From Candidatus Dojkabacteria bacterium (lineage in GTDB: Bacteria; Patescibacteriota; Dojkabacteria; JAOAGR01): a DNA stretch of 64,000 nucleotides. The notes beneath the pieces are model-generated. The model worked only from the letters and a program-made list of their open reading frames with translations. It was not told where the DNA came from and ran no database searches. A program made the position numbers and the translations under genes. Below are positions 2 through 50,929 of this stretch, piece by piece (position 1 is the first letter of the stretch; each line of letters opens with the position of its first letter). The stretch spans positions 400,699 through 464,698 of the forward strand of contig AP026679.1 of assembly GCA_025999155.1 (NCBI GenBank), given 5' to 3'.

Positions 2-523
2 ATGTCAAATAATGGATTGCAAGAGGTAAATAATTTAGAATGGTTTTTTATTGACAACTTAAAGTGTGAAGAAGGTCTTGCTTACAGTATTTACAATGAA
101 GGATCCGTCTATTTTATCATCGAAGTTCAAGCTTTATGTATAAAGACATCTTTTACTTATCCTAAAAGAATCTCAAACGGATACGATGCAAAAAGATTAG
201 AAATGTTGATAGCGATATTAAGTAAAAAATTAGGCCTTCCTTTAGAAAATTGTGATATTTACGTAAACATTGTAGGAGGCATTAAAATCACAGATACAAG
301 TGCCGATTTAGCTGTTGCTGCAGCAATAATTTCTTCTTTTCAAAACAAACCATTAGCTGATAAACCATGTTTTATTGGGGAAATAAGTCTTACTGGCGAA
401 GTAAGAAAAATTCACAAACAAACAGAAAAAATTAAAAAAGCGAAAGAATACGGCTTCAAAAAAATATACTATGATAAAGTAATGCCAAATATCAAACTCT
501 TATTAGAACACAACACGTTATAA
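2..523 (+). CDS. radA: DNA repair protein RadA/Sms, C-terminal Lon-like domain (5'-truncated by window edge)
   Basis: The translation carries the RadA C-terminal Lon-protease-like domain motifs 'DLAVAAAIISS' and 'IGEISLTGEVR'. The ORF runs from the first base of the window, so the N-terminal zinc-finger and RecA-like domains lie outside it. Confidence 0.7.
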   Translation: MSNNGLQEVNNLEWFFIDNLKCEEGLAYSIYNEGSVYFIIEVQALCIKTSFTYPKRISNGYDAKRLEMLIAILSKKLGLPLENCDIYVNIVGGIKITDTSADLAVAAAIISSFQNKPLADKPCFIGEISLTGEVRKIHKQTEKIKKAKEYGFKKIYYDKVMPNIKLLLEHNTL

Positions 524-8536: not shown

Positions 8537-11101
8537 ATGAGAATACCAATTAGTTGGCTAAAAGAATACGTAGATCTACCACAAGATCTCAAGACATTTA
8601 CCGATAAAATGTCCATGATTGGGCATATGTTGGATAAAATAGAAGTTACTGATACAGACACAGTGATCGATCTTGAATTGAGAGGTAATAGAGCAGACTG
8701 TTATGCAATTTTAGGATTAGCAAGAGAATGGTATGCATGTAATGGGGGAAGGTTTGATGTTCCGAATATAACAGCTGATACACAAGCAGCATTGAAATCA
8801 AAACAATACAGCAGCATTAAAGTAGAAATTCATTCATCAGATGTGTACAGATTCTATTCTACAGTCATTCGAGGAGTAAAAGTCAGGCCTAGTCCAGCAT
8901 GGCTACAATCACGTCTAAAAGATTACGGTATTAATCCCATCAATAACATAGTCGATATTACTAATTACGTTATGGTAGAAACAGGCATGCCGATGCATGC
9001 TTTTGATCTAGTAAAAATTGATGGTAACAGATTGATAATAAGAAACTCTCAAAAAGGAGAAAGATTTTTTACATTCGAAGGTACAGAAAAAGAATTGACT
9101 GGCACAGAAACTGTTTTTGCAAGCGAAAATTCTGTACTAGGTTTAGTAGGAATAATAGGATCAAAAGACTCCGGAATAAGTAATAATACACAAGATATAT
9201 TATTAGAATGCGCTGCTTACGACCGAGTAGCTATTCGAAAAACAAAAATAAGACTAAATCTACATACAGAAGCAGCACTTAGGCATTCGCATGATTTATC
9301 TGCATCTTTATGTGACTACGCTCTAGCAAGAGCTACGGATATGATTATTCAATTAGCTTGTGATGGGGACTACTCTTGTATCGAGGGGTACCATGACTAT
9401 TATCCAAACCCAGAAAAACCAAAGCAAATTTTATATAACCCATCAGAAGTAAAAAGACTTGGAGGCATAGATGTAGACGTAGATATTCAAGCAGATATTT
9501 TAAAACGATTAGAATTCAAAGTCGAAAAAAAAGAAAACTCAAATAATTTATTAATTACTGTACCTTTATTCAGAACTGATATATTTGAATCTGCAGATAT
9601 TGTCGAAGAAATTCTGCGTATTTATGGCTATGAGAACATTCCGTCAAGAATCCTTGAGGACACGATACCAGAGCCGATCATACTAAAGGATTTGGAAATT
9701 GAAGACAAGGTACGGGACTTATTAGTTAGCATGGGACTTAATGAAGTGATCACTGTTCCAATGGTGACTTTGGACGAATTAGAAAAAACATTTGATCCTC
9801 TAGCAAGTAGGGCAATACCTTTGATCAATCCGCCAACAAGCTACCATACGCATATGCGTACTAATATGTACACAACGCTATTACAAGTTGCAAAAAGAGT
9901 CATAGACCGTGGTGATAAAAATGTATCAATATTCGAGGTAGGTAAAATATATTTTAAACAAGATCAAAATAATCCGATACCGAATTTTCCTCATAAGCTA
10001 GAATTTCCTTATGTGGAAAAAAGAAAAATAAGCCTACTATTTGCTTCAAAAAAGAATGAATGGGATTTCTATCGAGTAAAAGGCATAATTGAAGAAACTC
10101 TTGATCAGTTAGGTATAAGTAACGTTGAGTACAACAGATATGAAAATCCGCAGTATGCTTTAGCCGCAGAAATTACTCAAAACGGCCTTAAAATTGGTTG
10201 TGTAGGCATAATAAACAATGCTATAAATAGGAACTTTGATATAATTCCAACCGTTTATGTGTCTATTTTAGATGTAGAAGCGCTGGTGAAAGCAGAAAAA
10301 ACCATGAAAAGTTATCTGCCTTATTCTCAATACCCGTCAATTGAACTTGACATGTCGGTGCTTGTGCCATTTGAAGTAGAGGCAGCTTCACTAAAAAAAG
10401 AAATCATCAAAAGTGGAAATAATCTCATCAGATCTGTCGAAATAGTTGATTATATTGAGAAATCAGGGAAAAAATCTATTTTATTCAGAATACACTATCA
10501 ATCTAAAGAGCGCACTCTATCTCTTGATGAAGTGAATGAATTACACATATTGATAGAGAATATTCTTAAATCGAGATTTGGTGTCATTATTCAGGGTAGA
10601 GACGATATACAGGATAAGATTATTCCAATAACAAATAAAAAGGAATTAATTAATAGGTCATCGAAAACATTATCCAATGTTCATCATGAATTAATTGAGT
10701 CAACGAATCGATTTATTGTCATTGGAAGAATATTAGAAGTCACAAAACACCCAAACGCAGATAAATTAGTAATATGTAAAGTAGATGTGGGTAAAGCTAA
10801 ACCAGAAAATACTTTATATCCTGATTACTTACAAATAATAACAGGGGCAGAAAATATCAGGCCTATAGAATCACATGGAAAAATTGTACCTGTCGCACTC
10901 CCAGGAGCAATAGTCAAATCTCATCATACAAGTGAAAAAATTAAAATAAAAATTAGTAAAATAAGAGGTGAAGTTTCGGAAGGCATGTTATGCTCTGCGG
11001 ATGAACTAGAATTAGATTACCCAGGATATGATGGAATTTTGATACTGGACGATGCGTTACGCGATAGGGTAGGTGAAGTGTTTGAACGTAAATCAATATG
11101 A
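8537..11101 (+). CDS. pheT: phenylalanine--tRNA ligase beta subunit with C-terminal tRNA-binding (EMAP/Trbp111-like) OB domain
   Basis: The N-terminus 'MRIPISWLKEYVDL' is followed directly by the B3/B4 motif 'GNRADCYAILGLAREW', then the B5 and catalytic-like core. The canonical tRNA_bind OB signature 'HPNADKLVICKVDVG...EGMLCS' sits at the extreme C-terminus (residues ~735-840) instead of near the N-terminus. Confidence 0.85.
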   Translation: MRIPISWLKEYVDLPQDLKTFTDKMSMIGHMLDKIEVTDTDTVIDLELRGNRADCYAILGLAREWYACNGGRFDVPNITADTQAALKSKQYSSIKVEIHSSDVYRFYSTVIRGVKVRPSPAWLQSRLKDYGINPINNIVDITNYVMVETGMPMHAFDLVKIDGNRLIIRNSQKGERFFTFEGTEKELTGTETVFASENSVLGLVGIIGSKDSGISNNTQDILLECAAYDRVAIRKTKIRLNLHTEAALRHSHDLSASLCDYALARATDMIIQLACDGDYSCIEGYHDYYPNPEKPKQILYNPSEVKRLGGIDVDVDIQADILKRLEFKVEKKENSNNLLITVPLFRTDIFESADIVEEILRIYGYENIPSRILEDTIPEPIILKDLEIEDKVRDLLVSMGLNEVITVPMVTLDELEKTFDPLASRAIPLINPPTSYHTHMRTNMYTTLLQVAKRVIDRGDKNVSIFEVGKIYFKQDQNNPIPNFPHKLEFPYVEKRKISLLFASKKNEWDFYRVKGIIEETLDQLGISNVEYNRYENPQYALAAEITQNGLKIGCVGIINNAINRNFDIIPTVYVSILDVEALVKAEKTMKSYLPYSQYPSIELDMSVLVPFEVEAASLKKEIIKSGNNLIRSVEIVDYIEKSGKKSILFRIHYQSKERTLSLDEVNELHILIENILKSRFGVIIQGRDDIQDKIIPITNKKELINRSSKTLSNVHHELIESTNRFIVIGRILEVTKHPNADKLVICKVDVGKAKPENTLYPDYLQIITGAENIRPIESHGKIVPVALPGAIVKSHHTSEKIKIKISKIRGEVSEGMLCSADELELDYPGYDGILILDDALRDRVGEVFERKSI

Positions 11102-11190: not shown

Positions 11191-11511
11191 TTAAGAGTTT
11201 TTATTTACAAAATCTTTTAATCGTCTATCAAGTTCCCTCCAATTCGGTAAAAATATGTTCATATAGCTCTTCCATAGAGGTCCATGGTTAGCCACCCTGA
11301 AGTGTAATAACTCATGCACAATCACATATTCTCCTAATTGTTTGTCCATTTCCAGAAGCTCATCATTAAAATTCAGATTCCCTTTTGTAGAACAAGAAGC
11401 CCATTTATTTCTCATAGGACGCAGATAAATAGAGGCTACTTTTACATCTAGTAAAGAAGCCCAAGATAATACGACAGCCTTAAATTCTGCTTTATCTTTC
11501 CAATAGTTCAT
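11191..11511 (-). CDS. DUF45/YgjP-like (M48/WLM-type) zinc metallohydrolase, HExxH
   Basis: The motif 'HELLHF' (HExxH) is present in a ~100-aa protein. Its start overlaps the hsdR stop by 4 nt, the known YgjP-type accessory position downstream of type I hsdR genes. Confidence 0.6.
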   Translation of the reverse strand: MNYWKDKAEFKAVVLSWASLLDVKVASIYLRPMRNKWASCSTKGNLNFNDELLEMDKQLGEYVIVHELLHFRVANHGPLWKSYMNIFLPNWRELDRRLKDFVNKNS

Positions 11512-14429
11512 TTGCTTTGACCAAGCAATAGTCTAAAAATATTGTCTACAATAGAAGTTAAATTATCAAGATCATCAATTGATTTATACAATTCTATAGT
11601 TACGTTTTGCCGTACCTCCCGCATCATATGCCCACTAAAACGCCACTCAGTATTTTCTTCCAAAATAGTTTTTATTCTTTTTGCGATACCTATTGAATTA
11701 TACGTAACTACTGGTTCAATTTCTTTATGCAGAAAAAAAGTTAAATCATCTAATTTCAATCTAGCCTGCTCTTTTTTACGAAGTTCATTCTTCTTGATCT
11801 CATCAAAAAGCATTTGAAGTGCTTCACCTGTTGATAATTGACGGTTTTCATACTGTTCCTGTATTTGCTTAGCACGTTCTGCCATCACAAACAAAAACGG
11901 GTCACCACTGTGTTCTTCAGCAACTTTTTGAATACTTTTGATCAAATTGATTACTTTTATATTGTCACTGTATCCTTTTTGTTTGATTATATCGATCGTT
12001 TTTTCATTTATCTCAATAATATCGTTAACAGGAATAAACCCATAAGCAACGATATGTTCTCTGACAAGCTCATAAGTCTTATTTAGTAATTCTTTATCAA
12101 TATATGTCTTTTTCGAATAAGCATTACGCACTATTTGATACATGGATGCAAATAATTTATAAGAATCTAAATAATTCCTCAAAAATGGATCTGGAGAAAT
12201 GATCTCATATAGCATCTCGCATTCTTTGTATTCTTTAAAAAATTCTTTTCTTTTATCTTTATCACGAAAGTATTCAATAAGATTATCCACATCTTTATCA
12301 TTAAAATTATTTTTAATCAGTCTCAGATATTCTGGTACTTTACTCTCCATTTTGCTTTTGAATGAAGCTTTTAAAAGATCAATATCCTTGACAGTAGCAT
12401 TTATCTCATCCGTATCAAAAGAAAGAGCTTGTTCGAGTTTTTCAAATATACCAATAAAATCAAGTACAAAACCATGTGGTTTTACCATTTCGAGTGCTTC
12501 GTTCTCATACGGTCTATTTACACGGGCAATAGTTTGTAGAAGTGTATGGTCACGCATCGGTTTGTCGAGATACATAGCATAGAGAATCGGCGCGTCAAAT
12601 CCTGTCAAAAGTTTTTCCGTAACAATCAGTATTTTAGGAAGTTCTCCGTATTGAGTAAAAGATTTTCTTATTTGTCGCTCTTTATTTTCATCAAGATGGA
12701 ATTCCTTTAGAAGTGGAGAGTCATTATTATTGCCAGTATATACGACAACAGAATATTCCGGTGGTAAATATTTATCTAAAGCCTTTTTATAATAGGCACA
12801 TGCTTCACGATCTACAGCAACCAAAAACGCCTTATAGCCTAATGGTTCGACATTTTTTCGGTAATGTTCTGCAACAAAACATGCAATCTTATCAATACGA
12901 TCCTTTGCCTTCAGGAAACTCTTGAGGTTTACAGCCTTATCTAAAATTTTATTTAATTCGTCTATATCAGAAATACCTTGAGCTTCTGTAAGTGATAAAA
13001 ATTCTTTATCTAATTGTTCATACGGTACACGCATCTCATTAGGTGCAAGATTGTAATATAGAGGCAATGTTGTACCATCAGCTATACTCTCGGAGATCGA
13101 ATATTTATGTAAGTAGCCTTTTTCATCATCCATGCCAAAAGTTTTAAAAGTACCTCTTCCATAAGCTGTTTTGTCAACAGGGGTACCTGTAAAGCCAATA
13201 TAAGTTGCATTGGGAAGGCCAGCCATAAGATAATTACCCAGATCGCCTCCGGTGGTCCGGTGTGCTTCATCAATGAGAACAAAAATATTACTGCGGGTAT
13301 TGATATTAGCCGGCATATCACGAAATTTATGAATCATAGAAACAATAATGCCGCGATAATCGCTTCTTAGAAGTTCGTTTAACCTTGCTATGTTGTAGGC
13401 ATGTTCTACATTATTGATACCGAGAGAACGTAAATTCTTGATCATCTGGTCTTCCAGTTCATTACGGTCAATCAAAAGTATAATGGTAGGTTTCTCATGC
13501 TTTGGTGCCTTAAAAAGCATTTCAGCAGCTTTTATCATAGTGTATGTTTTACCTGATCCTTGAGTGTGCCAGATGAGTCCCCGTTTCTTAACAGGATCGT
13601 GCGAGCGTTCTAGTATTTTTTCTACAGCCTGGACCTGATGCTGCCTCAAAATAAACTTACTGAGTTCTTCGTCCTTTTCGGCAAAGATTATGAAATTTTT
13701 TATAAATGCCAAAACCTGCGGGATAGAGAAAAAAGTTTTTACCTTTTTTTCAAGGTTTCCTGTCTCCTCTGCTTTCCAATTAAAAATATTTCTACGGACG
13801 GTATTCCATGTAACGCCATAATAAAAACCAATAGCTTCGGTGACCGTAAATATTTGTTCTGGAACAAAAAATTCTGGAGTTTCGTTATGATATCGACGAA
13901 TTTGATCAATTCCCAAGGCAATAGCTTCATCTTTAGTAGCATTTTTGCATTCTATGACCAAAACCGGGATACCGTTAATCAGAAAGACAATATCTTCCCT
14001 GTTACCGTAGTAGCCATTATACCAATAAAATTCTTCAGTTACTTCAAAGACATTGTTTTTGGGATTTTCGTAATCGATGACTATCAAATTCAGATCGCGA
14101 TTTTCTTCTTTGCAGTAATAGATGCCTTCATTTCGCAGATATTTCAAAAAATCCCGATTTCCGTAAATGTCCGGCTTTATAGAAGTAAATGTCTTGATGA
14201 GAGATGCTTTGTTTTCGGAATATTTTGGATTAAATTCCTTTACCTTAGCAAACAACAAATCTTCAAAATAGAGAGAGGCCGTCCGGCATCGCAGCTGAAT
14301 ATTATTTGATTCATTATTAAACCCCCTCCGTTTTTCTGCTTCGGATCTATCAACGTAAATCCAGCCAATCTCCTGAGCGTATTGTAGGATACGGGATTGA
14401 ACGGTTTTATGTTCGGTTGGTGTGTGCAT
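11508..14429 (-). CDS. hsdR: type I restriction enzyme R subunit
   Basis: It has the SF2 helicase motif I 'HTQGSGKTYTM', motif II 'LIDEAHRT' and 'GFTGTP', in a 973-aa protein with an N-terminal nuclease region. It lies immediately downstream of hsdS on the same strand. Confidence 0.9.
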   Translation of the reverse strand: MHTPTEHKTVQSRILQYAQEIGWIYVDRSEAEKRRGFNNESNNIQLRCRTASLYFEDLLFAKVKEFNPKYSENKASLIKTFTSIKPDIYGNRDFLKYLRNEGIYYCKEENRDLNLIVIDYENPKNNVFEVTEEFYWYNGYYGNREDIVFLINGIPVLVIECKNATKDEAIALGIDQIRRYHNETPEFFVPEQIFTVTEAIGFYYGVTWNTVRRNIFNWKAEETGNLEKKVKTFFSIPQVLAFIKNFIIFAEKDEELSKFILRQHQVQAVEKILERSHDPVKKRGLIWHTQGSGKTYTMIKAAEMLFKAPKHEKPTIILLIDRNELEDQMIKNLRSLGINNVEHAYNIARLNELLRSDYRGIIVSMIHKFRDMPANINTRSNIFVLIDEAHRTTGGDLGNYLMAGLPNATYIGFTGTPVDKTAYGRGTFKTFGMDDEKGYLHKYSISESIADGTTLPLYYNLAPNEMRVPYEQLDKEFLSLTEAQGISDIDELNKILDKAVNLKSFLKAKDRIDKIACFVAEHYRKNVEPLGYKAFLVAVDREACAYYKKALDKYLPPEYSVVVYTGNNNDSPLLKEFHLDENKERQIRKSFTQYGELPKILIVTEKLLTGFDAPILYAMYLDKPMRDHTLLQTIARVNRPYENEALEMVKPHGFVLDFIGIFEKLEQALSFDTDEINATVKDIDLLKASFKSKMESKVPEYLRLIKNNFNDKDVDNLIEYFRDKDKRKEFFKEYKECEMLYEIISPDPFLRNYLDSYKLFASMYQIVRNAYSKKTYIDKELLNKTYELVREHIVAYGFIPVNDIIEINEKTIDIIKQKGYSDNIKVINLIKSIQKVAEEHSGDPFLFVMAERAKQIQEQYENRQLSTGEALQMLFDEIKKNELRKKEQARLKLDDLTFFLHKEIEPVVTYNSIGIAKRIKTILEENTEWRFSGHMMREVRQNVTIELYKSIDDLDNLTSIVDNIFRLLLGQSK

Positions 14430-32859: not shown

Positions 32860-35418
32860 TCAGCACTCCCCCCACACCCTATCAATTACTTTTTTGATTT
32901 TTTCTTCGTAGGTTTTGATCATTTCTCGAAGGCTGTCTATCACCCTCCGCTCGGCTTCGATTTTTTCGACAATACACTGCTGGATGTCAAGTGGCGGAAG
33001 GGGGATTTGATATTCCTGTATAAAAAAAGCTGGTACTCTCTGTAATCCACCTGTACCTGTCATCATTTTAGCCCCTTCTTTTATGAATCTATTAGACGAA
33101 ATATACGGATAAATGTATTCAGAAACAATTTTTTCTTTAATTGGTCTTAAAACATGAAGTTCACTTGAACCAAAGCCTATTCCATTTTTTAAATTACGTG
33201 CAATTCCGGACTTACCATTTTCAAAACAAGGAGTAACTTTGGCAACTAAAACGTCGTTTTCTTTGAAATTTGTATAACCTTTGTATACTTCTGAAAGTTT
33301 TTTTTCTTTTTTAGGTATAATATCCTGTACTGTACCAATATCTTCCATAGGTAAAAATGAAACGGTTATGTCGTCATTAAGGTTGGCAACCTCAGATTTT
33401 TTTGGATTTATCTCACACACCTCCCCCAACCTCACCATGGGCCAGCCGTTGGCTAATTCTTCTTTTTTTTCGGGATGTTGGGCAAGGTAGTTTTTTAATT
33501 CTTCTTCGAGATAGGTTTCTATATCAGGCTTCCAGGCATCTATCACCTGCCTGCAGCCGTCGATAAGCTTCTGATAGCCTTCTATCTCTGCCACTATCTC
33601 CTGCTGCACTTCAAGGGGTGGGAGGGGGATTTGAATTTCAATAAAATCTGATGTTGGTATAGTTCTTCTGCGGTTGGCTGTCCCTATCATTTTTGACTTA
33701 TAAATTTTTCGTGCTTGTTTAGAACGAAATATTATTTCCAAATAAGGGATGTAACTATCAGTTTCTTTTTTTAACTTCCAAATGTTGTATGCAGGACTTA
33801 CAGCTGCAACTTCATATTTTGTTTGAAAACCAAGGACACCTTCATCAATAGGAAAGCCAACCACTAATTCATTTTTAAAAACTTTTTTATAGTTCTGAGT
33901 GTTTTTGCTTGCTATACGTTTTTTAAACTTTTCTTCTTGATCGATCAGCCCTTTGTACATAGTAATAGACATAATTGGCAAATTCTCATTGCCAGCTCTG
34001 TCCTTTCCAGATAATTCTATAACTTCCCCCAGCTTCACCATCGGCCATTTTTGGTGTTTGCGTTTTTCTACCACTCTATATCTATCGCCGGTGAGGTTGT
34101 ATTCGCCGTTTTCGGCAAGTGTTGATTTTTTGACGAGTAGGGGACTACATGGCTTATTTTCTAGCGTGAATTCGTCTACTTTATTCTTTCTAACAGCATT
34201 TTTATACTCCAAAATGACTTGTAAAGCATCAGGTAAATCATTCTTATCGATAGGACGGCGTTGTGCTCCTAAATCATAACCATCATTCTCAACCTTGATA
34301 AATAATATGCTGTCAGTTTTCCTCGCCAAATCCTTATCTATCAATAAAATCGAAGTCTTGACCCCCGAATAAGGCAAAAAAACCCCAGCCGGTAACGAAA
34401 CTACCGCATATAGATTAGCATCCTCTACTAATCTTTTTCTAAGTTGCTTGTATGCTTTAGCACTTTGGAAAATAATCCCTTCCGGTACTACTATTCCTGC
34501 CCTGCCATTGTAAATGCTCAAATGATCAATTATATAATCAACAAACAAAACCTCTGCTCGTTTTGACTGAATAGAAAAACGACTATGTGGCATTATGCCC
34601 CCTTTAGGAGTCATAAATGGTGGATTAGCCAAAATAACGTTAAAATTATCATCCCATCTGTCAGTACTACTCAGAGTGTCATACTCGTATATGTGAGGTT
34701 CACGAATATCATGCAAAAACATGTTCACAAGCGATATTCTCACCATATCAGGCGAAATATCATAACCAACAAGATTATCAGTCAATCTATCCCTTTCCGA
34801 AGGACTAAGAGGAGTATCCTTATTTTGATCCAAAATATATTTATACGCAGAAATCAAAAAACCAGCAGTACCACAAGCAGGATCGCAGATCTTATCGTTT
34901 TTAGTTGGTTCTACAGCATGTACTATAAAATCAATAATATGCCTCGGCGTACGAAATTGCCCAGCTCCACCTTGTGCAGCCATCACCGACAAAAGGTATT
35001 CATAAGCATCTCCCAGGTCTTCACTATGCTCGTATTCGAATTCATCAATGACCTTTAGGAATAAATTCAAAGTCTCAGGACTATTAAATGACAAAAAAGC
35101 ACCTCTAAAAATATCCCTAAAAATTTGTTCAATATTGGGATTTAATGACATTTTCTCCAGGGCTTCCTTGTATAATTTCAGCCTGTTTTCACCTCCTAGA
35201 CCCGGATCCATAAGCTTACTCCATGCATATTTCTCGTACTCCCCACGAAAAAACGTCCTTTGACCACCCATTGCCTCAGACTTGCTGTCCATATAATCCA
35301 TAAATTTATAAATCAAAGCTAGCGTGATCTGCTCCACTTGGGCCTTTGGATCAGGTATTTTGCCTACTAGAATATCACGGGCAGTATCTATTCTTCGTTT
35401 TGTCTCTGCATTTAACAT
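32860..35418 (-). CDS. fused type I-like R-M methyltransferase-specificity protein (HsdM domain + two TRDs)
   Basis: The N-terminal ~420 aa carry the HsdM helical N-domain 'IDTARDILVGKIPDP...ALIYKFMD', the SAM motif 'DPACGTAGFLI' and the catalytic motif 'LANPPFMTPKGG'. The C-terminal ~430 aa carry two TRDs, each with an N-box ('WPMVKLGEVIEL', 'WPMVRLGEVCEI') and a conserved HsdS helix ('LPPLEVQQEIVAEIEG', 'LPPLDIQQCIVEKIEAE'). Confidence 0.8.
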   Translation of the reverse strand: MLNAETKRRIDTARDILVGKIPDPKAQVEQITLALIYKFMDYMDSKSEAMGGQRTFFRGEYEKYAWSKLMDPGLGGENRLKLYKEALEKMSLNPNIEQIFRDIFRGAFLSFNSPETLNLFLKVIDEFEYEHSEDLGDAYEYLLSVMAAQGGAGQFRTPRHIIDFIVHAVEPTKNDKICDPACGTAGFLISAYKYILDQNKDTPLSPSERDRLTDNLVGYDISPDMVRISLVNMFLHDIREPHIYEYDTLSSTDRWDDNFNVILANPPFMTPKGGIMPHSRFSIQSKRAEVLFVDYIIDHLSIYNGRAGIVVPEGIIFQSAKAYKQLRKRLVEDANLYAVVSLPAGVFLPYSGVKTSILLIDKDLARKTDSILFIKVENDGYDLGAQRRPIDKNDLPDALQVILEYKNAVRKNKVDEFTLENKPCSPLLVKKSTLAENGEYNLTGDRYRVVEKRKHQKWPMVKLGEVIELSGKDRAGNENLPIMSITMYKGLIDQEEKFKKRIASKNTQNYKKVFKNELVVGFPIDEGVLGFQTKYEVAAVSPAYNIWKLKKETDSYIPYLEIIFRSKQARKIYKSKMIGTANRRRTIPTSDFIEIQIPLPPLEVQQEIVAEIEGYQKLIDGCRQVIDAWKPDIETYLEEELKNYLAQHPEKKEELANGWPMVRLGEVCEINPKKSEVANLNDDITVSFLPMEDIGTVQDIIPKKEKKLSEVYKGYTNFKENDVLVAKVTPCFENGKSGIARNLKNGIGFGSSELHVLRPIKEKIVSEYIYPYISSNRFIKEGAKMMTGTGGLQRVPAFFIQEYQIPLPPLDIQQCIVEKIEAERRVIDSLREMIKTYEEKIKKVIDRVWGEC

Positions 35419-35430
35419 AGATTCATAAAT

Positions 35431-37911
35431 CTACACAAAAGCATTCAGATCAATATTTTTACGGATAAAATCAACAACCAAGTCCAAAATTGTTTGTAGA
35501 TTTTCGATATCTTCAAGAGATAATTTAGGATTGGTACAAAGCCTGGAATACTGCTTACTATCGATAATATCACGAATATCTCCATCAGTAACATATATCT
35601 CAATAAAATCCCTCAATAGTTTCCTATCGACATCAGGATTATGAGCATTTAAAAATTTAGTAAAAACCTCGTCTATCAAATCATCCTTTGTCTTAATCTT
35701 AGGAATACGACCGAGAATATAGCCAATTATTTCCTTCACCGAAACCTTTCTATTCACATCTAAAGCCTTAGCTAATTTATCCAAATTAAAGTAATATTCT
35801 GGTTTATTAAATAAATTCTGATCTACATACTCTTCTAACTTATCATACTCCTGATCCTCATAAAGCCTATTGATAATAGGATCAATCTTCACATCATCAG
35901 CAAATCTATCAAAAAACTTCCTATCTATCTTCATACCTTCGGCACCAATATGCGTTTTGGTAATAGTTTTGATTGGATCAGGAATAGATATGGTTACCTC
36001 ATCGATACTTATAGATTTAGTCTCGTCCGGTGAGTCTATCCTCTCACTTGATATCGGTAATTTCAAAACCCGATCATAATCAAATTTCTCCTCAAAATAC
36101 TCACAATTAGCAAAGAAATCAAAAAGATAAAATTCTTTCTTGTCTATCTTGATTTCTTGGCCATTTTCATCGGTATAGGAAAAAGTATGTGTACGCGTAC
36201 CACGCCCTTTGATCTGAATAAAATCAGTAGGTGAAAAAATCGGCCTCATCAGACAAATATTCAAAATATCCTGACAATCATATCCCGTCGTCATCATATT
36301 GACTGTCACACATACGCGTGTCTTGCTTGATTTGTAGCCTTCTTTGAATTTTGTCACACCATTGAGATTATTATTAGCAAATTTCTGTGCATAGCTTTGT
36401 GCATCATGAATATTCGATGTTACTTGTACCGCAAAATCAGAATTATACATTCCTGGCCAATATTGATCAGCTAAGTGATTGAGAATAGCTGTAATCTTTG
36501 ATGCATGATTTTGACTCACACAAAATACCAGAGTCTTGCCAATTTCCCCGCTTATCGGATCTCTCAAAGCATTATCCAAAAAAGCCTTACAAAAAGCGTT
36601 ATTTGTCTCTCTTGAGAAAAATCTTTTCTCAAAATCCTTTGAAAAAAAGACTTTTTCACTTTCATCTCCTTCCTCAGTACGTACTACCGTAGCATAGCCC
36701 TGATCAGAGAGTAATTGTGTAGTGATATGAGTTCTAGCATCATATACGACTGGATTGATTAGGTAGCCATCTTTGACTCCATCTATCAAACTATAGCGAA
36801 ATGTAGGTTCGCCCGATGGACATCCAAATGTATTATAAGTATCCAATAATTGACGACGTTCAAAAGCCCTAGGATCTTCTTGACTTAATTTCTCAATGTC
36901 TACATTCCTTAGATAATCTCTAGGTGTAGCAGTAAGTCCTAACTTATACCCAATGAAATATTCAAATACATCACGACTATTGCCCGAAATCGATCTATGC
37001 GCCTCATCCGAAATCACTAATTGAAAATCATGGGGAAGAAATAATCTACGATACCTATTATCCTTCAATAAACTCTGAACCGTAGTGACCACAATATCAG
37101 CGCTATTCCAAACATCACGATTCTCTTTATAAATCACTACCCTGAAATCTTTTTTGAGTAATTGAACAAAACTTTGATATGCCTGATTTTCTAATTCTAT
37201 CCTGTCCACTAAAAAAAGTACCCTTATGGCATTTCTAGTTTTTAAAAATAGTTTAATGATAGCCGCAGATAATAGAGTCTTACCTGTACCCGTCGCCATC
37301 TCCAATAAAAACCTTGTCTTACCTTCTTTTACAGCTTGTTGGATAGCATGGATAGCCTTGAGTTGGTAATGTCTGAGAAATTTTAGTTGATTATCTTTGA
37401 TAAATTTTTGCCTTGTAGATTCATCTAGCCACTCAGGATGACTCTTATAATCACTTATCTGAGTCAAGACTACAAAATCACTTTCGACTTTTTCACTAGC
37501 TAAGGCATCAAAATCAAATTTGTACTCTTTGACTCCTTCTATTGATTTTAAAGAAGGAAATTTCTCGATCTGTACAGGATTACCATGGTTCAAATCCCAG
37601 AAATAATGAGTTTCACCATTGGACAAAATTACATAATTTACACCCATGGCCCATGCATATTCACGGGCTTGTTCTTTAGCATCCAAAGGATCTTTATGAG
37701 CAGCCTTCGCCTCAATAACTATGATTGGAGATTGATTATCATCAAGAAGTACATAATCTATAAACCGTACTCCTGATCCATCTCCAGTATTTATATGTAC
37801 TGTAACTTCAGTTCTGACATTTGCTCTCTTGCCATTGGTATTTTCTAGCATCCAACCGGCCTCTTCCAGTAATTTGTTGATTTTCAACCTGGCATCAGAT
37901 TCTTTTGGCAT
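35431..37911 (-). CDS. type I-like restriction subunit: N-terminal PD-(D/E)xK (HSDR_N/Mrr-like) nuclease + SF2 DEAH helicase
   Basis: The N-terminus 'RFIDYVLLDD...IIVIEAKAAHKD' is a D...EAK nuclease core. Helicase motif I 'LEMATGTGKTL', motif II 'VISDEAHRS' and motif VI-like 'QIKGRGTR' follow. It lies 12 nt upstream of the fused MS gene on the same strand. Confidence 0.75.
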   Translation of the reverse strand: MPKESDARLKINKLLEEAGWMLENTNGKRANVRTEVTVHINTGDGSGVRFIDYVLLDDNQSPIIVIEAKAAHKDPLDAKEQAREYAWAMGVNYVILSNGETHYFWDLNHGNPVQIEKFPSLKSIEGVKEYKFDFDALASEKVESDFVVLTQISDYKSHPEWLDESTRQKFIKDNQLKFLRHYQLKAIHAIQQAVKEGKTRFLLEMATGTGKTLLSAAIIKLFLKTRNAIRVLFLVDRIELENQAYQSFVQLLKKDFRVVIYKENRDVWNSADIVVTTVQSLLKDNRYRRLFLPHDFQLVISDEAHRSISGNSRDVFEYFIGYKLGLTATPRDYLRNVDIEKLSQEDPRAFERRQLLDTYNTFGCPSGEPTFRYSLIDGVKDGYLINPVVYDARTHITTQLLSDQGYATVVRTEEGDESEKVFFSKDFEKRFFSRETNNAFCKAFLDNALRDPISGEIGKTLVFCVSQNHASKITAILNHLADQYWPGMYNSDFAVQVTSNIHDAQSYAQKFANNNLNGVTKFKEGYKSSKTRVCVTVNMMTTGYDCQDILNICLMRPIFSPTDFIQIKGRGTRTHTFSYTDENGQEIKIDKKEFYLFDFFANCEYFEEKFDYDRVLKLPISSERIDSPDETKSISIDEVTISIPDPIKTITKTHIGAEGMKIDRKFFDRFADDVKIDPIINRLYEDQEYDKLEEYVDQNLFNKPEYYFNLDKLAKALDVNRKVSVKEIIGYILGRIPKIKTKDDLIDEVFTKFLNAHNPDVDRKLLRDFIEIYVTDGDIRDIIDSKQYSRLCTNPKLSLEDIENLQTILDLVVDFIRKNIDLNAFV

Positions 37912-47561: not shown

Positions 47562-48968
47562 TTACAGATTAGTTGGGCGTGGTATACTACTATTTAACAT
47601 TTGTTCTAATTCTTCAGATTTGAATTTTAATTCAATTTTCCCACTTTTTTGAGCCAGATCTTTATAATACCCATCATATACGCCTCTAAGGTATTTATCT
47701 ATTATTTCATCAACAGTTTCCTGATTATGAGTTTTTATTCTTTGTGCTGTTGGATTGATATCGGCAAATACAGCGAAGTACGATCCTTTAGGTATTTTGT
47801 TTAATGCTGTAATTTGCGCTGGTATAAAAGTATCACTCCCTTTTGCTTCGAATAACTTTATACTATTTTCTGGTCTTGTTAAAAATTCTAAAAATTTGAC
47901 TGATTGTTCATAGTAAGGCAGATAAGATGGTATGACTAAGGACTGAGAAAGAGATAAGTTTCTGATAGTAGAAATTTGTGGAGGTATTGCTGTAGCAAAG
48001 TTTAGATTTGGATTAAGTCGTATTATTTCATCAATATCTTTACTATTTACTATGACAATTGAGGTTTTACCTTCTGCAAATGTTTTTATGTCATTACCTA
48101 AAGAATCATCCCAAATTTTTTGTGTAGTGAATTCTGTGTAAAATTTCAAAGCTTCTTCAAATTTACTATCAAGAGCATATTTCTTTGTTTTAGAGTCATA
48201 AAAACTAGCATTATTCTGCATAATTAATAGTTTTAATATGTCTTTCGCATTAGTAACATTTTTGGGTGATCCTATTGCTGCTCCCGATCGGATGATTTTC
48301 TCTATTTGTTTTTTGTCACTGTTTATAGTCTTTTCAGTCTTTGTTATTGATTTTGCTTTGATAGCTAATCCTGTCCAGTCTAGCTTATTAAAATCTTCCT
48401 CGGTAAAGTTTATTTCAGCTAGATGATCACGATTATATGCTATTACTAGACTATTAAATCGAAATGGGACACCATACACAAGAGTATTTAAAGTATTATT
48501 ATCAAGAATCGTTTTTGTGTACCGACTCAGAATAGTGTTAGAAGTAATAGGTAGCAATTGTGTGTATACTTCATCTATCCAGGATTCGTCAATTTCGACA
48601 ATGTCACCCATATTTGGGGATGACGAAGTGAGTCTTGTGATAATTCTATTTTTGTAGTCTGTATCAGATTGGACTTCAAGTTTAACCTTGATTAGAGGAT
48701 TCTCAGCTTCAAAATCTCTTATAATGTTTTCCATCACTTCCTGATTGATCGATCGAGTCCAGAATTTTATTGTCACTGGTGTTTCTACAACAGTTTGTTG
48801 CTTTGGTAAAAACACTAAAATTATGCCAATGATCAATGCTGTAATTATTAACCCTAATAATGTAAAAACTATAAACTTGTTTTGTATAATTAAATCTTTT
48901 AACAGCTGTCCCTTTCGACTTGTAGTAGAGGAATTATTTGGTATATTTTGATTTTGTGGTATCGGCAT
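47562..48968 (-). CDS. membrane-anchored extracellular solute-binding protein family 1-like
   Basis: An N-terminal TM anchor is followed by 'IKFWTRSINQEVMENIIRDFEAENPLIKVKLEVQSD...GDIVEIDESWIDE', the typical N-lobe pattern of sugar-type ABC substrate-binding proteins. Confidence 0.45.
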   Translation of the reverse strand: MPIPQNQNIPNNSSTTSRKGQLLKDLIIQNKFIVFTLLGLIITALIIGIILVFLPKQQTVVETPVTIKFWTRSINQEVMENIIRDFEAENPLIKVKLEVQSDTDYKNRIITRLTSSSPNMGDIVEIDESWIDEVYTQLLPITSNTILSRYTKTILDNNTLNTLVYGVPFRFNSLVIAYNRDHLAEINFTEEDFNKLDWTGLAIKAKSITKTEKTINSDKKQIEKIIRSGAAIGSPKNVTNAKDILKLLIMQNNASFYDSKTKKYALDSKFEEALKFYTEFTTQKIWDDSLGNDIKTFAEGKTSIVIVNSKDIDEIIRLNPNLNFATAIPPQISTIRNLSLSQSLVIPSYLPYYEQSVKFLEFLTRPENSIKLFEAKGSDTFIPAQITALNKIPKGSYFAVFADINPTAQRIKTHNQETVDEIIDKYLRGVYDGYYKDLAQKSGKIELKFKSEELEQMLNSSIPRPTNL

Positions 48969-49056
48969 ATTAAATTTTAGAATTACATACTTAGTGTGTA
49001 AATAAAAACCTAGTCATTTTATCAGAATTCGTATATTCTTTTTTATAGTATATAGA

Positions 49057-50136
49057 ATGAGCCCGCAATTTGCACAAAGTGTTCATGATGATATAGCTTT
49101 TTTATTACAACAGTTGCGCTCATCGAATTGCCCTGAAGAATTACGTTCGGAAGTAGAGCGCAAATTAGGAATAATCATCAAAACAGCGCAATTTGGCGGA
49201 TTTTCTACTGAATTTGAGAAAATTACTAAATATGTAGAATGGATTTCCCGTATACCATGGGGAAAATATACAGTTGATAATCTTTCTCTAGCTAATGTAA
49301 AAAAGACTTTAGATAAGCATCATTATGGAATTGAGAAAGTAAAAGAAAGAATACTTGAGTACATATCCATCATGAAATTAAAGATGGATCAAGAAAAGAC
49401 TAACGTTGTGAGAGCTCCAGTGATGTGTTTTGTCGGGCTTCAGGGAATCGGCAAAACTAGTCTTGCAAAAGCTATTGGTGAGGCGATGGGACGATCAACA
49501 GTCAGAATTGCTATGGGAGGTCTGGGTTCTACTTATGAGTTACGAGGTAAGCCAAAAACAGAACCAGATGCAGAGCCTGGACAAATTATCAAAGCTTTAA
49601 TTAATGCTGGTAGTATGAATCCACTAATTATACTTGATGAGATGGATAAAGTCTCGGGGAATATAGCGCTAAGAAAAGATTTTATGGCAATACTACTTGA
49701 AATATTGGATCCAGAACAGAACTATGCTTTTCGCGACCATTATATTGATTACCCTGTAGATTTATCTAAGGTGTTTTTCATTGCTACCGCGAATAATCTA
49801 GGAAATGTATCCGCTGCTTTATTGGATCGCTTGGAGGTGGTTCGATTCTATTCATATTCAGATGAAGAAAAAGAAGTCATTGGTAAGTTATATCTACTAC
49901 CTAATATTATGCAGGAAGTTGGATTAACATCTGAACAATTAGAGTTCACTGATGATGCTTGGCCTACTATTGTGAGACCTTTAGGATTTGATGCCGGTAT
50001 TCGCCAATTAAAACGCAATCTGTATTCTATTTGCAGAAAAGTCGCAAAAATTATAGTCCTTGGTAAAGCTAAAAAAGTGATTATTAATTCAAACAATGCA
50101 AAATCTTTTATAGACGAAAGTTTTGCCGTGATGTAA
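49057..50136 (+). CDS. Lon-like AAA+ ATPase module lacking the Lon N domain and the S16 protease domain (359 aa)
   Basis: It is collinear with E. coli Lon residues ~240-590: 'WISRIPWGKY...HYGIEKVKERILEYI', Walker A 'GLQGIGKTS', Walker B 'ILDEMDK', 'LLEILDPEQNYAF', 'FIATANN' and 'LDRLEVV'. It ends at the linker where the protease domain should begin. Confidence 0.7.
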   Translation: MSPQFAQSVHDDIAFLLQQLRSSNCPEELRSEVERKLGIIIKTAQFGGFSTEFEKITKYVEWISRIPWGKYTVDNLSLANVKKTLDKHHYGIEKVKERILEYISIMKLKMDQEKTNVVRAPVMCFVGLQGIGKTSLAKAIGEAMGRSTVRIAMGGLGSTYELRGKPKTEPDAEPGQIIKALINAGSMNPLIILDEMDKVSGNIALRKDFMAILLEILDPEQNYAFRDHYIDYPVDLSKVFFIATANNLGNVSAALLDRLEVVRFYSYSDEEKEVIGKLYLLPNIMQEVGLTSEQLEFTDDAWPTIVRPLGFDAGIRQLKRNLYSICRKVAKIIVLGKAKKVIINSNNAKSFIDESFAVM

Positions 50137-50323
50137 GCATTATAAGTTTTTTACTTGCAATAACTATAGCTTAACACAACGTCCCCGATGTATACTACAA
50201 ATATAAAGGGATTTAAAAAGCCTCTCTGATGGATACTCCTAATTGTACTAAATTGGAGTATTTTTCAGATACGAAAAATAAACATAATATAATCTACATT
50301 ACTCTAGATTATTTTAGATTACC

Positions 50324-50929
50324 TTATCTATTCTCTTCCCATTCGGTAGAGTAGAGAATATCTTCAATAGCTAGTCTATAATCATAAATTTCATCTTCCT
50401 TGAACCAAACAGCTAATTCTCTTTCGGCTTCTTCAACGGAGCTTGATGCGTGAATCAAATTACGTGCTGCTCGGTCGGCTTCATCTGCAAGTACATATGA
50501 ATCTATCGTGTAATCACCTCGTATTGTACCAACATCAGCATCAAGCGGACTACCATGTCCTACAAGTTTTCTTACATGATCGATAGCATGGGCCCCTTCG
50601 ATTACCATGACTAATACTGGTCCAGCGAGCATAAATCTAACTAGTCTTCTTTGTACATCTTCTGCAATTTTTATTGGATCCATGTTTAATTCTATGCCTC
50701 TCTTTTTATATGACTCCAATGTACGTGTGCCGCTTTTCAATTTTTCTTCATCTGACCAATAATAATGTGCTTTTGCTTGTTCTTCTGTAGCCTTGAGAAA
50801 TTTCATAGCTACAATTTTTAGGCCTTTTTTTTCGAAGCGTGAAATTATTTCGCCCATTAGCCCTCTTTGTACAGTATCTGGTTTTAGTAGTACTAATGTT
50901 CTTTGGTATGATAATGGTTTATTTTGCAT
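50324..50929 (-). CDS. ndk: nucleoside diphosphate kinase (with ~50-aa C-terminal extension)
   Basis: It has the NDK motifs 'RTLVLLKPDTVQRGLMGEIISRFE' and 'NLIHASSS'. Confidence 0.85.
   Translation of the reverse strand: MQNKPLSYQRTLVLLKPDTVQRGLMGEIISRFEKKGLKIVAMKFLKATEEQAKAHYYWSDEEKLKSGTRTLESYKKRGIELNMDPIKIAEDVQRRLVRFMLAGPVLVMVIEGAHAIDHVRKLVGHGSPLDADVGTIRGDYTIDSYVLADEADRAARNLIHASSSVEEAERELAVWFKEDEIYDYRLAIEDILYSTEWEENR

Follow-up and report, generated by a model that had tools for sequence, protein, structure and literature searches.

A conserved Lon-derived AAA+ ATPase lacking N domain and protease domain in Dojkabacteria and other Patescibacteria

A 64,000-nucleotide stretch of contig AP026679.1 from a Candidatus Dojkabacteria bacterium (positions 400,699 to 464,698, forward strand; referred to as the window) contains, at 49057..50136 on the + strand, a complete open reading frame (ORF) with an ATG start and a TAA stop, which encodes a 359-residue, stand-alone AAA+ ATPase derived from the Lon protease. 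As judged by sequence comparison, it belongs to subfamily A of an old, monophyletic family without the LON N domain, the coiled-coil helix and the S16 protease domain. We are highly confident that the ORF is a functional stand-alone member of this family. The ATPase site is strictly conserved, both pore loops have diverged from those of LonA, and the balance of the evidence tilts towards a non-proteolytic remodelling machine, as set out below.

The first-pass annotation, made from the letters of the window, had described the ORF as collinear with the middle of Lon and as carrying the Walker A and B, sensor and arginine-finger regions, and this was confirmed. The product matched the Pfam families AAA (residues 123–264, 3.4e-17) and Lon_lid (residues 287–340, 4.9e-13), and neither LON_substr_bdg (PF02190) nor Lon_C (PF05362). 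The NCBIfam model TIGR00763 (endopeptidase La) was matched with an E-value of 1.9e-98 over profile positions 256–574 of 795 only, the score of 330.9 bits lying below the curated cut-off of 608.05; likewise, NF008053 gave 247 bits against a cut-off of 891. In a phmmer comparison with PDB sequences, residues 15–354 aligned with the NTD3H and AAA+ part of LonA, with E-values of 1e-64 to 1e-77 for the B. subtilis, Y. pestis, E. coli, Meiothermus and human mitochondrial (LONP1) proteins. The alignment with the top match, B. subtilis LonA (3m6a, 7.7e-77), has no large gaps, and the ORF is collinear with LonA residues ~250–580, comprising NTD3H, AAA+ domain and lid. The AlphaFold2 model built from 28 homologues (mean pLDDT 88.8) shows helices at residues 3–22, 27–45 and 51–65, followed by an AAA+ α/β domain and a helical lid, and Foldseek aligned it with LonA and LONP1 chains at a TM score of ~0.8.

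The two ends of the protein fared differently with respect to the earlier description. The start had been placed inside the long helix of Lon; it lies instead at the first residues of the NTD3H bundle, downstream of that helix. The end had been placed at the linker before the S16 domain, and there the PDB alignment and the lack of a Lon_C match agree with it. The short tail after the lid is equivalent to the beginning of the linker that leads to the protease domain in LonA, at which point the protein stops.

Along the + strand, the three-helix bundle equivalent to NTD3H (aa 1–66, 49057..49254) holds the loop GGFS (aa 47–50). It is followed by the Walker A motif GLQGIGKT (aa 127–134, 49435..49458) and by a remodelled pore loop 1, RGKPKTEPDAEPGQ (aa 163–176, 49543..49584), in which E169, D171 and E173 replace Y398, G400 and M402 of LonA. 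The next segment (49624..49689) comprises the Walker B motif LIILDEMDK, with D194 and E195, and then an altered pore-loop-2 region with a two-residue insertion, VSGNIALRKDFMA. The pre-sensor-1 (PS1) β-hairpin DHYIDYPVDLS (Y229 being equivalent to LonA Y456), the sensor-1 residue N246 and the trans-acting arginine finger R258 are encoded at 49735..49836, and the Lon-type lid, or small AAA+ subdomain, with the sensor-2 residue R316 and the tail at 49852..50133.

The conservation of functional residues was analysed in an alignment of 219 family sequences, 82 canonical LonA representatives and a further two LonA fragments, using Y. pestis Lon numbering and the functional residues and PS1 β-hairpin definition given for that protein (PMC7239648). 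K362, T363, D423, E424, N473, R484 and R542 are kept in 218–219 of the 219 family members, and all of their equivalents are present in the ORF (K133, T134, D194, E195, N246, R258 and R316). The Walker A residues K133 and T134 are invariant (219/219), as are D194 and E195 of Walker B, with a family signature G[LIV]QG in Walker A in the place of the GPPG of LonA. Furthermore, the PS1 β-hairpin aligns without gaps on the LonA hairpin, the equivalent of Y456 being tyrosine in 192 and phenylalanine in 27 sequences, and the aromatic cluster Y294/W297/Y456 is retained in the family. By its sequence, then, the ORF is predicted to carry the residue set of a catalytically competent ring ATPase of the HCLR clade.

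The pore loops present a different picture. Almost all positions that are at least 90% conserved in LonA and have no majority residue in the family fall within them, namely 388, 394, 395, 397 and 398 in pore loop 1 and 434, 436 and 439 in pore loop 2. At position 398, tyrosine in 81 of 82 LonA sequences, the 219 family members have E (83), F (32), H (20), N (15), S (14), R (11), Y (11) and others; F or Y is thus found in 43, and the pore-loop-1 tyrosine has been lost in ~75–80%. An aromatic residue anywhere at 397–399 occurs in 53 members (38/162 in subfamily A and 15/57 in subfamily B). In the ORF, Glu169 followed by Pro170 occupies the place of Y398-I/V399, and the LonA motif RGHRRTY[IV]GxMPG reads RGKPKTEPDAEPG. 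Downstream, G400 has become D in 175 and E in 22 sequences and M402 has become E in 214, giving a motif D-[AS]-E-P-G-Q; moreover, the tandem R395/R396 of LonA is cut down to [SP]-[RK], and the G434/P436 motif of pore loop 2 is lost. The earlier description of intact Walker, sensor and arginine-finger regions holds, but it passed over pore loop 1, which is not intact.

In Y. pestis Lon the substrate is contacted by Y398/I399 and by M284, which lies above the pore (PMC7239648). The residue aligned with M284 is F49 of the NTD3H loop, a position at which 110 of the 219 members have Y and 86 have F. The two subfamilies are distinguished by their Walker A motif and pore loop 2: subfamily A, with 162 sequences including the ORF and Dojkabacteria, has G[LIV]QG[IV]GKT and the two-residue pore-loop-2 insertion, and subfamily B, with 57 sequences from other Microgenomates-group lineages, has GL[VA]GTGKT and is without the insertion. 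Because the pore-loop-1 tyrosine is Glu in the ORF and both pore loops have lost their LonA conservation, a general 'unfoldase' label is, on sequence grounds, doubtful.

The first-pass annotation had preferred a stand-alone unfoldase to a decaying pseudogene, and the stand-alone part of that claim is firmly supported, through dN/dS, constant architecture and the lack of remnants; it is the word 'unfoldase' that the divergent pore loops leave without support. Compared with an orthologue at locus L001 (93% protein and 83% nucleotide identity), the ORF has dN 0.040, dS 1.32 and dN/dS 0.031, indicating strong purifying selection, with synonymous sites nearly saturated. The neighbouring ndk gave dN/dS 0.054, so the ORF is at least equally constrained, and an identical protein is present in three independent metagenome samples. 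A ratio of 1.23 for the upstream solute-binding gene was discarded, its codons having been compared unaligned, with a pN of 0.69 that suggests non-collinear genes.

Remnants of the missing domains were sought with two hidden Markov models (HMMs), one built from 81 N regions and the other from 76 C-terminal protease domains, all of canonical Lons taken from the profile search described below. The target was the six-frame translation of the window and 86 fetched loci, 1.41 Mb in all. The N-region HMM matched only the positive controls L085 and L086 (234 and 202 bits), and the S16/Lon C-domain HMM matched only the positive-control Lon loci and the RadA C-terminus at window positions 2–520. A tblastn search with approximate E. 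coli Lon N and C probes also found nothing and is superseded by the HMMs. Upstream, the 88-bp spacer (48969..49056) to the divergent solute-binding-protein gene is too short for a Lon N domain and gave no match to one, so the N-domain remnant that would have spoken for a pseudogene is not there. Downstream, the 187-bp spacer (50137..50323) to the convergent ndk has stops in all three forward frames and no S16 match, which speaks against a frameshifted protease remnant at 50137–50320 and agrees with the earlier observation that ndk follows on the opposite strand with no protease ORF in between. Stops are present in all frames of both spacers.

A decaying lon pseudogene, the remains of a full-length lon whose 5′ and 3′ parts have gone, would account for a domain content shorter than that of LonA, the sole point in its favour. 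It is at odds with the intact frame and the dN/dS of 0.031, with the invariant catalytic residues, with flanking spacers of just 88 and 187 bp that hold no N-domain or S16 remnant, with a base composition like that of the surroundings and with a length and ends that stay the same, down to 43% identity, in 240 protein clusters and at least 81 genomes. Its probability is practically negligible.

The extent of the family was assessed by several searches. A homology search with the ORF listed 120 matches, all of 254–455 aa (most 354–420), 48–93% identical and carrying no Pfam domains but AAA and Lon_lid; when a Levybacteria member 48% identical to the ORF served as the query, 120 matches were again listed, all of 321–360 aa with the same Pfam domains. 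A scan of one genome per species gave at least 594 stretches passing tblastn, of which the best 80 loci were kept and verified. In all of the 81 loci and the window, the matching ORF measures 316–472 aa and stops at, or a few residues away from, query positions 347–359. Loci and listed matches together span 254–472 aa, with most members at 340–430 aa. By record titles the family occurs in Dojka-, Gottesman-, Woese-, Levy-, Shapiro-, Ames-, Roizman- and Woykebacteria, of the Microgenomates group of Patescibacteria, or candidate phyla radiation (CPR). Several metagenome-assembled genomes carry other labels, 'uncultured Gammaproteobacteria', 'Pseudomonadales' or 'Bathyarchaeia archaeon' (L029, L039, L043, L045, L048, L049, L053, L058, L072 and others). 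Their contigs share the infB-rpsO-pnp-AAA-rnj-ftsK order with named Microgenomates-group genomes, and since this is the same CPR gene order the labels are probably wrong.

Among 1.84 billion cluster representatives searched with a profile, short single-module family proteins scored 405–586 bits and canonical Lons of 770–880 aa at most 367 bits, the best-scoring named canonical Lons being from Chloroflexi/Ktedonobacterales. Over the AAA+ region, identity to LonA representatives is 31–51% (median 42%). When 60 family and 40 canonical LonA sequences were joined in a neighbour-joining tree, the family (60/60) came together under a single node, whose stem is ~8 times as long as the median internal branch; it is a simple tree, with a family sample biased to sequences similar to the two queries. 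NCBIfam and Pfam hold no model of the family's own, and the four members tested matched TIGR00763 only, all below threshold. Members are annotated as 'ATP-dependent Lon protease' at JGI and as 'AAA family ATPase' at NCBI. A full-text literature search returned no paper on Lon ATPases without a protease from CPR bacteria, and this large family is apparently undescribed.

Some family members (P0128, P0146, P0147, P0153 and P0159/P0289) have Q/P/S/N-rich low-complexity tails of 100–320 residues, and the extensions of P0128, P0146, P0147, P0153 and P0159 showed no Pfam domain hinting at function. The tails are mostly N-terminal, with one C-terminal, and P0289 has extra copies of a 'QPQQPQVQPVQFGQQ' repeat relative to P0159.

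The top profile scores belonged to P0121–P0144, proteins of 890–1675 aa with two or three tandem LonA-type AAA+ modules, a single Lon_C and no Lon N domain. They were considered as fused ancestors and rejected: they are multi-module Lons, 33–40% identical and without the family signature, whose scores sum over the modules, and they are related to the ORF family only by the Lon AAA+ fold. Among them, the dual-module proteins P0123, P0125, P0131, P0133 and P0135 have Y/F-containing pore loops in both modules, and the triple-module proteins P0122, P0132, P0139 and P0142 have degenerate pore loops. P0133 (L086 6001–8886) is encoded two genes downstream of a LonA of normal type, 785 aa long (L086 2865–5222); some of the proteins, such as P0125, consist in part of two repeats that are nearly identical, and these proteins may be artefacts of assembly. 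A further, AT-rich candidate, P0265, was set aside as a canonical Lon of a CPR genome, its tig-clpP-clpX-lon context being non-CPR.

A peptidase partner was looked for in the gene neighbourhoods and in the protein itself. Clustering of neighbours across 82 loci showed no peptidase family recurring beside the AAA+ gene; the genes found there include pnp, rpsO, RNase J, UDG, ftsK, ndk and others of this sort. Within the 64-kb window, S16-fold sequence occurs solely in the Lon-protease-like P domain of RadA/Sms, whose C-terminal 173 aa are encoded at 2–523 (+), cut by the left edge of the window, and match PDB 5lkm (5.6e-31), Pfam ChlI (1.4e-09) and Lon_C (3.8e-05). This match was rejected as a protease partner, RadA being a DNA-repair protein encoded 48 kb away. 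Compared with LonA, the family has no family-wide insertion, the exception being the two-residue pore-loop-2 insertion of subfamily A. The C-terminal tails, ...FAVM, ...IGVYS or ...GTLS in subfamily A and shorter in subfamily B, are not conserved between the subfamilies. The '...VYS' terminus was considered as an HbYX proteasome-activating motif and dismissed, as it lines up with LGVQRF of the LonA linker and is confined to some members.

In subfamily B the gene lies within a conserved cluster on one strand, which runs infB, an NrnA-like DHH protein gene, rpsO, pnp, the AAA+ gene, in some cases UDG, then RNase J, ftsK and a rodZ-like gene. In 36/49 subfamily-B loci the gene directly upstream, in the same orientation, is pnp; RNase J is the next gene downstream in 26/50 and within four genes downstream in 43/50. 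The spacers are often 1–60 bp (48 bp and 3 bp at the Levybacteria locus L055). Two subfamily-A loci (L006 and L033) retain the pnp-AAA+-rnj arrangement, which marks it as ancestral. By this comparison the rpsO-pnp-AAA+-rnj order predates the A/B split and was lost in the lineage of the ORF.

The gene three positions upstream, between infB and rpsO (L055 6294–7310 and homologues, ~310–340 aa), has no Pfam match at 1e-5. The L055 protein is weakly similar to DHH/NrnA nanoRNases (PDB 5o4z, 3e-06; NCBIfam NrnA, 26 bits) and, on that similarity, may be a highly diverged or inactivated NrnA in an RNA-related cluster.

Taken with the lack of a protease, of a recognisable docking motif and of a neighbouring peptidase gene, these data somewhat favour the reading that the ORF product is a LonA-descended, non-proteolytic, ATP-driven remodelling or chaperone-like machine and not a general unfoldase. 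To the same slight degree we favour its working without any peptidase partner. Such a protein would be expected to assemble into a Lon-like ring and to hydrolyse ATP, because the trans-acting arginine finger and the catalytic residues are invariant, and would not feed polypeptide into a protease. Since the tyrosine paddle, R395/R396 and the pore-loop-2 motif are lost and acidic residues are fixed, most members would probably not thread substrate like LonA: the canonical aromatic paddle would no longer grip it, and the axial channel would be lined by fixed acids (D/E at LonA position 400 and E at 402, with E169 in addition in the ORF), beneath a conserved aromatic at the NTD3H entrance loop. 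The clients would then probably be basic or otherwise specific, bound or remodelled at the acidic channel. The ancestral, co-directional and tightly spaced rpsO-pnp-AAA+-rnj cluster suggests that they could be linked to RNA turnover, or be ribosomal or RNA-binding proteins. Ring assembly, ATP hydrolysis, the loss of threading and the class of client are all predictions of this kind.

How far the gene order should be pressed is a matter of degree. A functional tie between the AAA+ family and RNA decay is possible, though clearly the less probable case. A specific version, in which the acidic-pore, protease-free Lon ring is the ATP-dependent motor of Microgenomates-group RNA decay together with PNPase and RNase J, is distinctly speculative; here basic RNA-binding or ribosomal proteins would be stripped or remodelled off RNA, the ring taking the place that DEAD-box helicases have in other degradosomes.

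Several points weigh against these proposals. The stability of the LonA hexamer leans heavily on the protease-domain ring, and isolated AAA+ modules oligomerise poorly, so that ring formation by a protein without that ring would not be guaranteed. About a quarter of the members keep F or Y in pore loop 1, and threading may persist in some lineages. An acidic pore argues against direct threading of nucleic acid. In subfamily A, linkage to pnp and rnj is found in only 2/30 and 2/29 loci, respectively, and the pnp-AAA+-rnj order could be inherited gene order without functional meaning.

The main rival to a remodeller without a partner is a split Lon, in which the ORF would provide the ATPase ring for an S16-only or other self-compartmentalising peptidase encoded elsewhere, in the manner of ClpX-ClpP or HslU-HslV. 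ClpX and HslU are stand-alone ATPases that work in just this way. The ORF ends exactly at the LonA interdomain linker, ~25% of the members have an aromatic in pore loop 1, and Lon is grouped with ClpXP/ClpAP in the HCLR clade (PMC7239648), all of which suit a split enzyme. The neighbourhoods tell otherwise, with no adjoining peptidase gene in 82 loci and, in 1.41 Mb around family genes, no S16 signal except the positive controls and the non-proteolytic RadA C-terminus. No docking motif, C-terminal or loop, is common to the subfamilies, most members are without the Y398 paddle, and the two pore loops have diverged. We regard a split Lon as unlikely. A classical stand-alone unfoldase or translocase, whose hexamer threads hand-over-hand as LonA does without degradation, would fit the intact ATPase site, NTD3H and PS1 β-hairpin with its Y456 equivalent; pore loop 1 of some members moreover has F-L or Y-L, and the entrance-loop aromatic of NTD3H could grip substrate. 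However, the substrate contacts of LonA are made by Y398/I399 (PMC7239648), whereas pore loop 1 of the ORF reads K-T-E-P-D-A-E, with no aromatic or bulky hydrophobic residue, and the change of R395/R396 to [SP]-[RK] and the loss of G434/P436 point the same way. Threading of this kind is improbable, more so than a split Lon.

A part in anti-phage defence or in a mobile element, like the Lon-like BrxL or other defence AAA+ proteins, was also considered, given the type I restriction-modification genes elsewhere in the window and weak generic AAA matches to PADLOC models (best DolB, 35.9 bits). These matches cover the generic P-loop region only. The neighbours of the ORF are housekeeping genes (murE-like ligase, dnaN, ndk, fur) in a synteny kept by relatives, subfamily B sits inside the infB-rpsO-pnp-rnj-ftsK core cluster, and there is no anomaly of composition. 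A role in defence is very improbable.

Set beside LonA itself, which MEROPS places in S16, subfamily A, the ORF shares fold, domain order (~250–580), Walker A/B, sensors, arginine finger, PS1 hairpin and aromatic cluster; the LON N domain, the long helix and the S16 protease with its Ser-Lys dyad are missing. The pore differs through loss of the tyrosine, gain of acidic residues and an altered pore loop 2, and Walker A has GxQG for GPPG. Of five LonA features tested, the ORF has one, the combination of NTD3H, AAA+ domain and lid, and fails four (N domain, S16, curated score and pore-loop Tyr), for which reason it should not be annotated as a Lon protease. According to a published classification, ATPase and protease domains are both present in all Lons (PMC9569914).

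ClpX and HslU resemble the ORF product in being stand-alone members of the AAA+ clade to which it belongs and in having both a pre-sensor-1 hairpin and a trans arginine finger. They have aromatic-hydrophobic pore loops, dedicated docking elements and genes that usually lie beside the peptidase gene, three traits not found in the ORF family (82 loci; no recognisable docking motif). In LonC, or the Meiothermus Lon-like-Ms, the protease is kept and the AAA-like domain is degenerate and non-hydrolysing. The ORF family is its reciprocal, with an intact ATPase site and no protease, both being Lon derivatives that have given up one activity. The protease-independent chaperone activity of Lon and the non-proteolytic ClpB/Hsp104 disaggregases, which belong to the same AAA+ clade, are precedents for work by a Lon-type or related AAA+ ring without proteolysis; they rely on aromatic pore loops and N or adaptor domains, which are missing in the ORF. 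A chaperone role of LONP1 is mentioned in PMC9657610.

Around the ORF, the window carries dnaN, a Mur ligase gene (murE-like), a membrane protein gene, the solute-binding protein gene (47562–48968, −) upstream, the ORF, ndk (50324–50929, −; PF00334 in orthologous loci) downstream, an MFS transporter gene and fur, an order shared with the nearest relatives. These housekeeping surroundings give no hint of function. Base composition is uniform across the region, and promoter and terminator scans near the ORF gave matches no more numerous than, or fewer than, in shuffled sequence. The ORF-ndk spacer is 187 bp in the window compared with 82 bp in the 93%-identical relative (L001 11081–11162). The window spacer at 50137–50323 thus has ~105 additional bases, which are AT-rich and hold no ORF and no predicted terminator.

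In one Dojkabacteria-type clade (L003, L007, L010, L014, L016–L018, L020, L022 and L027) the AAA+ gene is convergent with an ORF of ~80 aa, often with a 4-nt overlap. Beyond this, on the minus strand, are the genes for an ~800-aa protein resembling VirB4/TraC, by sequence alone, and then for membrane proteins; from that resemblance, the cluster may be the type IV secretion system-like cluster described for Patescibacteria. Elsewhere in the window, PheT (phenylalanyl-tRNA synthetase β chain; 8537–11101, +, 854 aa) has its tRNA_bind domain at the C-terminus (727–824), after FDX-ACB. In bacterial PheT this domain is N-terminal, and the window protein may represent a domain permutation. The type I restriction-modification genes, all on the − strand, lie at 11508–14429, 32860–35418 and 35431–37911 and encode HsdR (973 aa), an N6_Mtase and Methylase_S fusion (852 aa) and, next to it, a further HsdR-like helicase (826 aa).

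The family represents a large, ancient and strongly conserved natural exception to the union of ATPase and protease in Lon, a motor without protease or recognition head, in which selection has been relaxed or redirected precisely at the pore loops that grip substrate. Its fold is ordinary; its architecture, its pore chemistry and its conservation throughout a CPR supergroup are not. Nature has here set up an experiment on what a Lon AAA+ ring can do alone, on whether such a ring can assemble without the protease ring and on what an acidic, non-aromatic pore binds, and the family exposes a systematic mis-annotation of its members. If the reduced genomes that carry it are without a true Lon, their protein quality control would be organised unlike that of model bacteria. 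The tight pnp-AAA+-rnj order across dozens of lineages provides a testable lead from an AAA+ motor to RNA turnover; were the motor of RNA decay to prove true, this would be the first natural Lon lineage to have swapped proteolysis for remodelling permanently.

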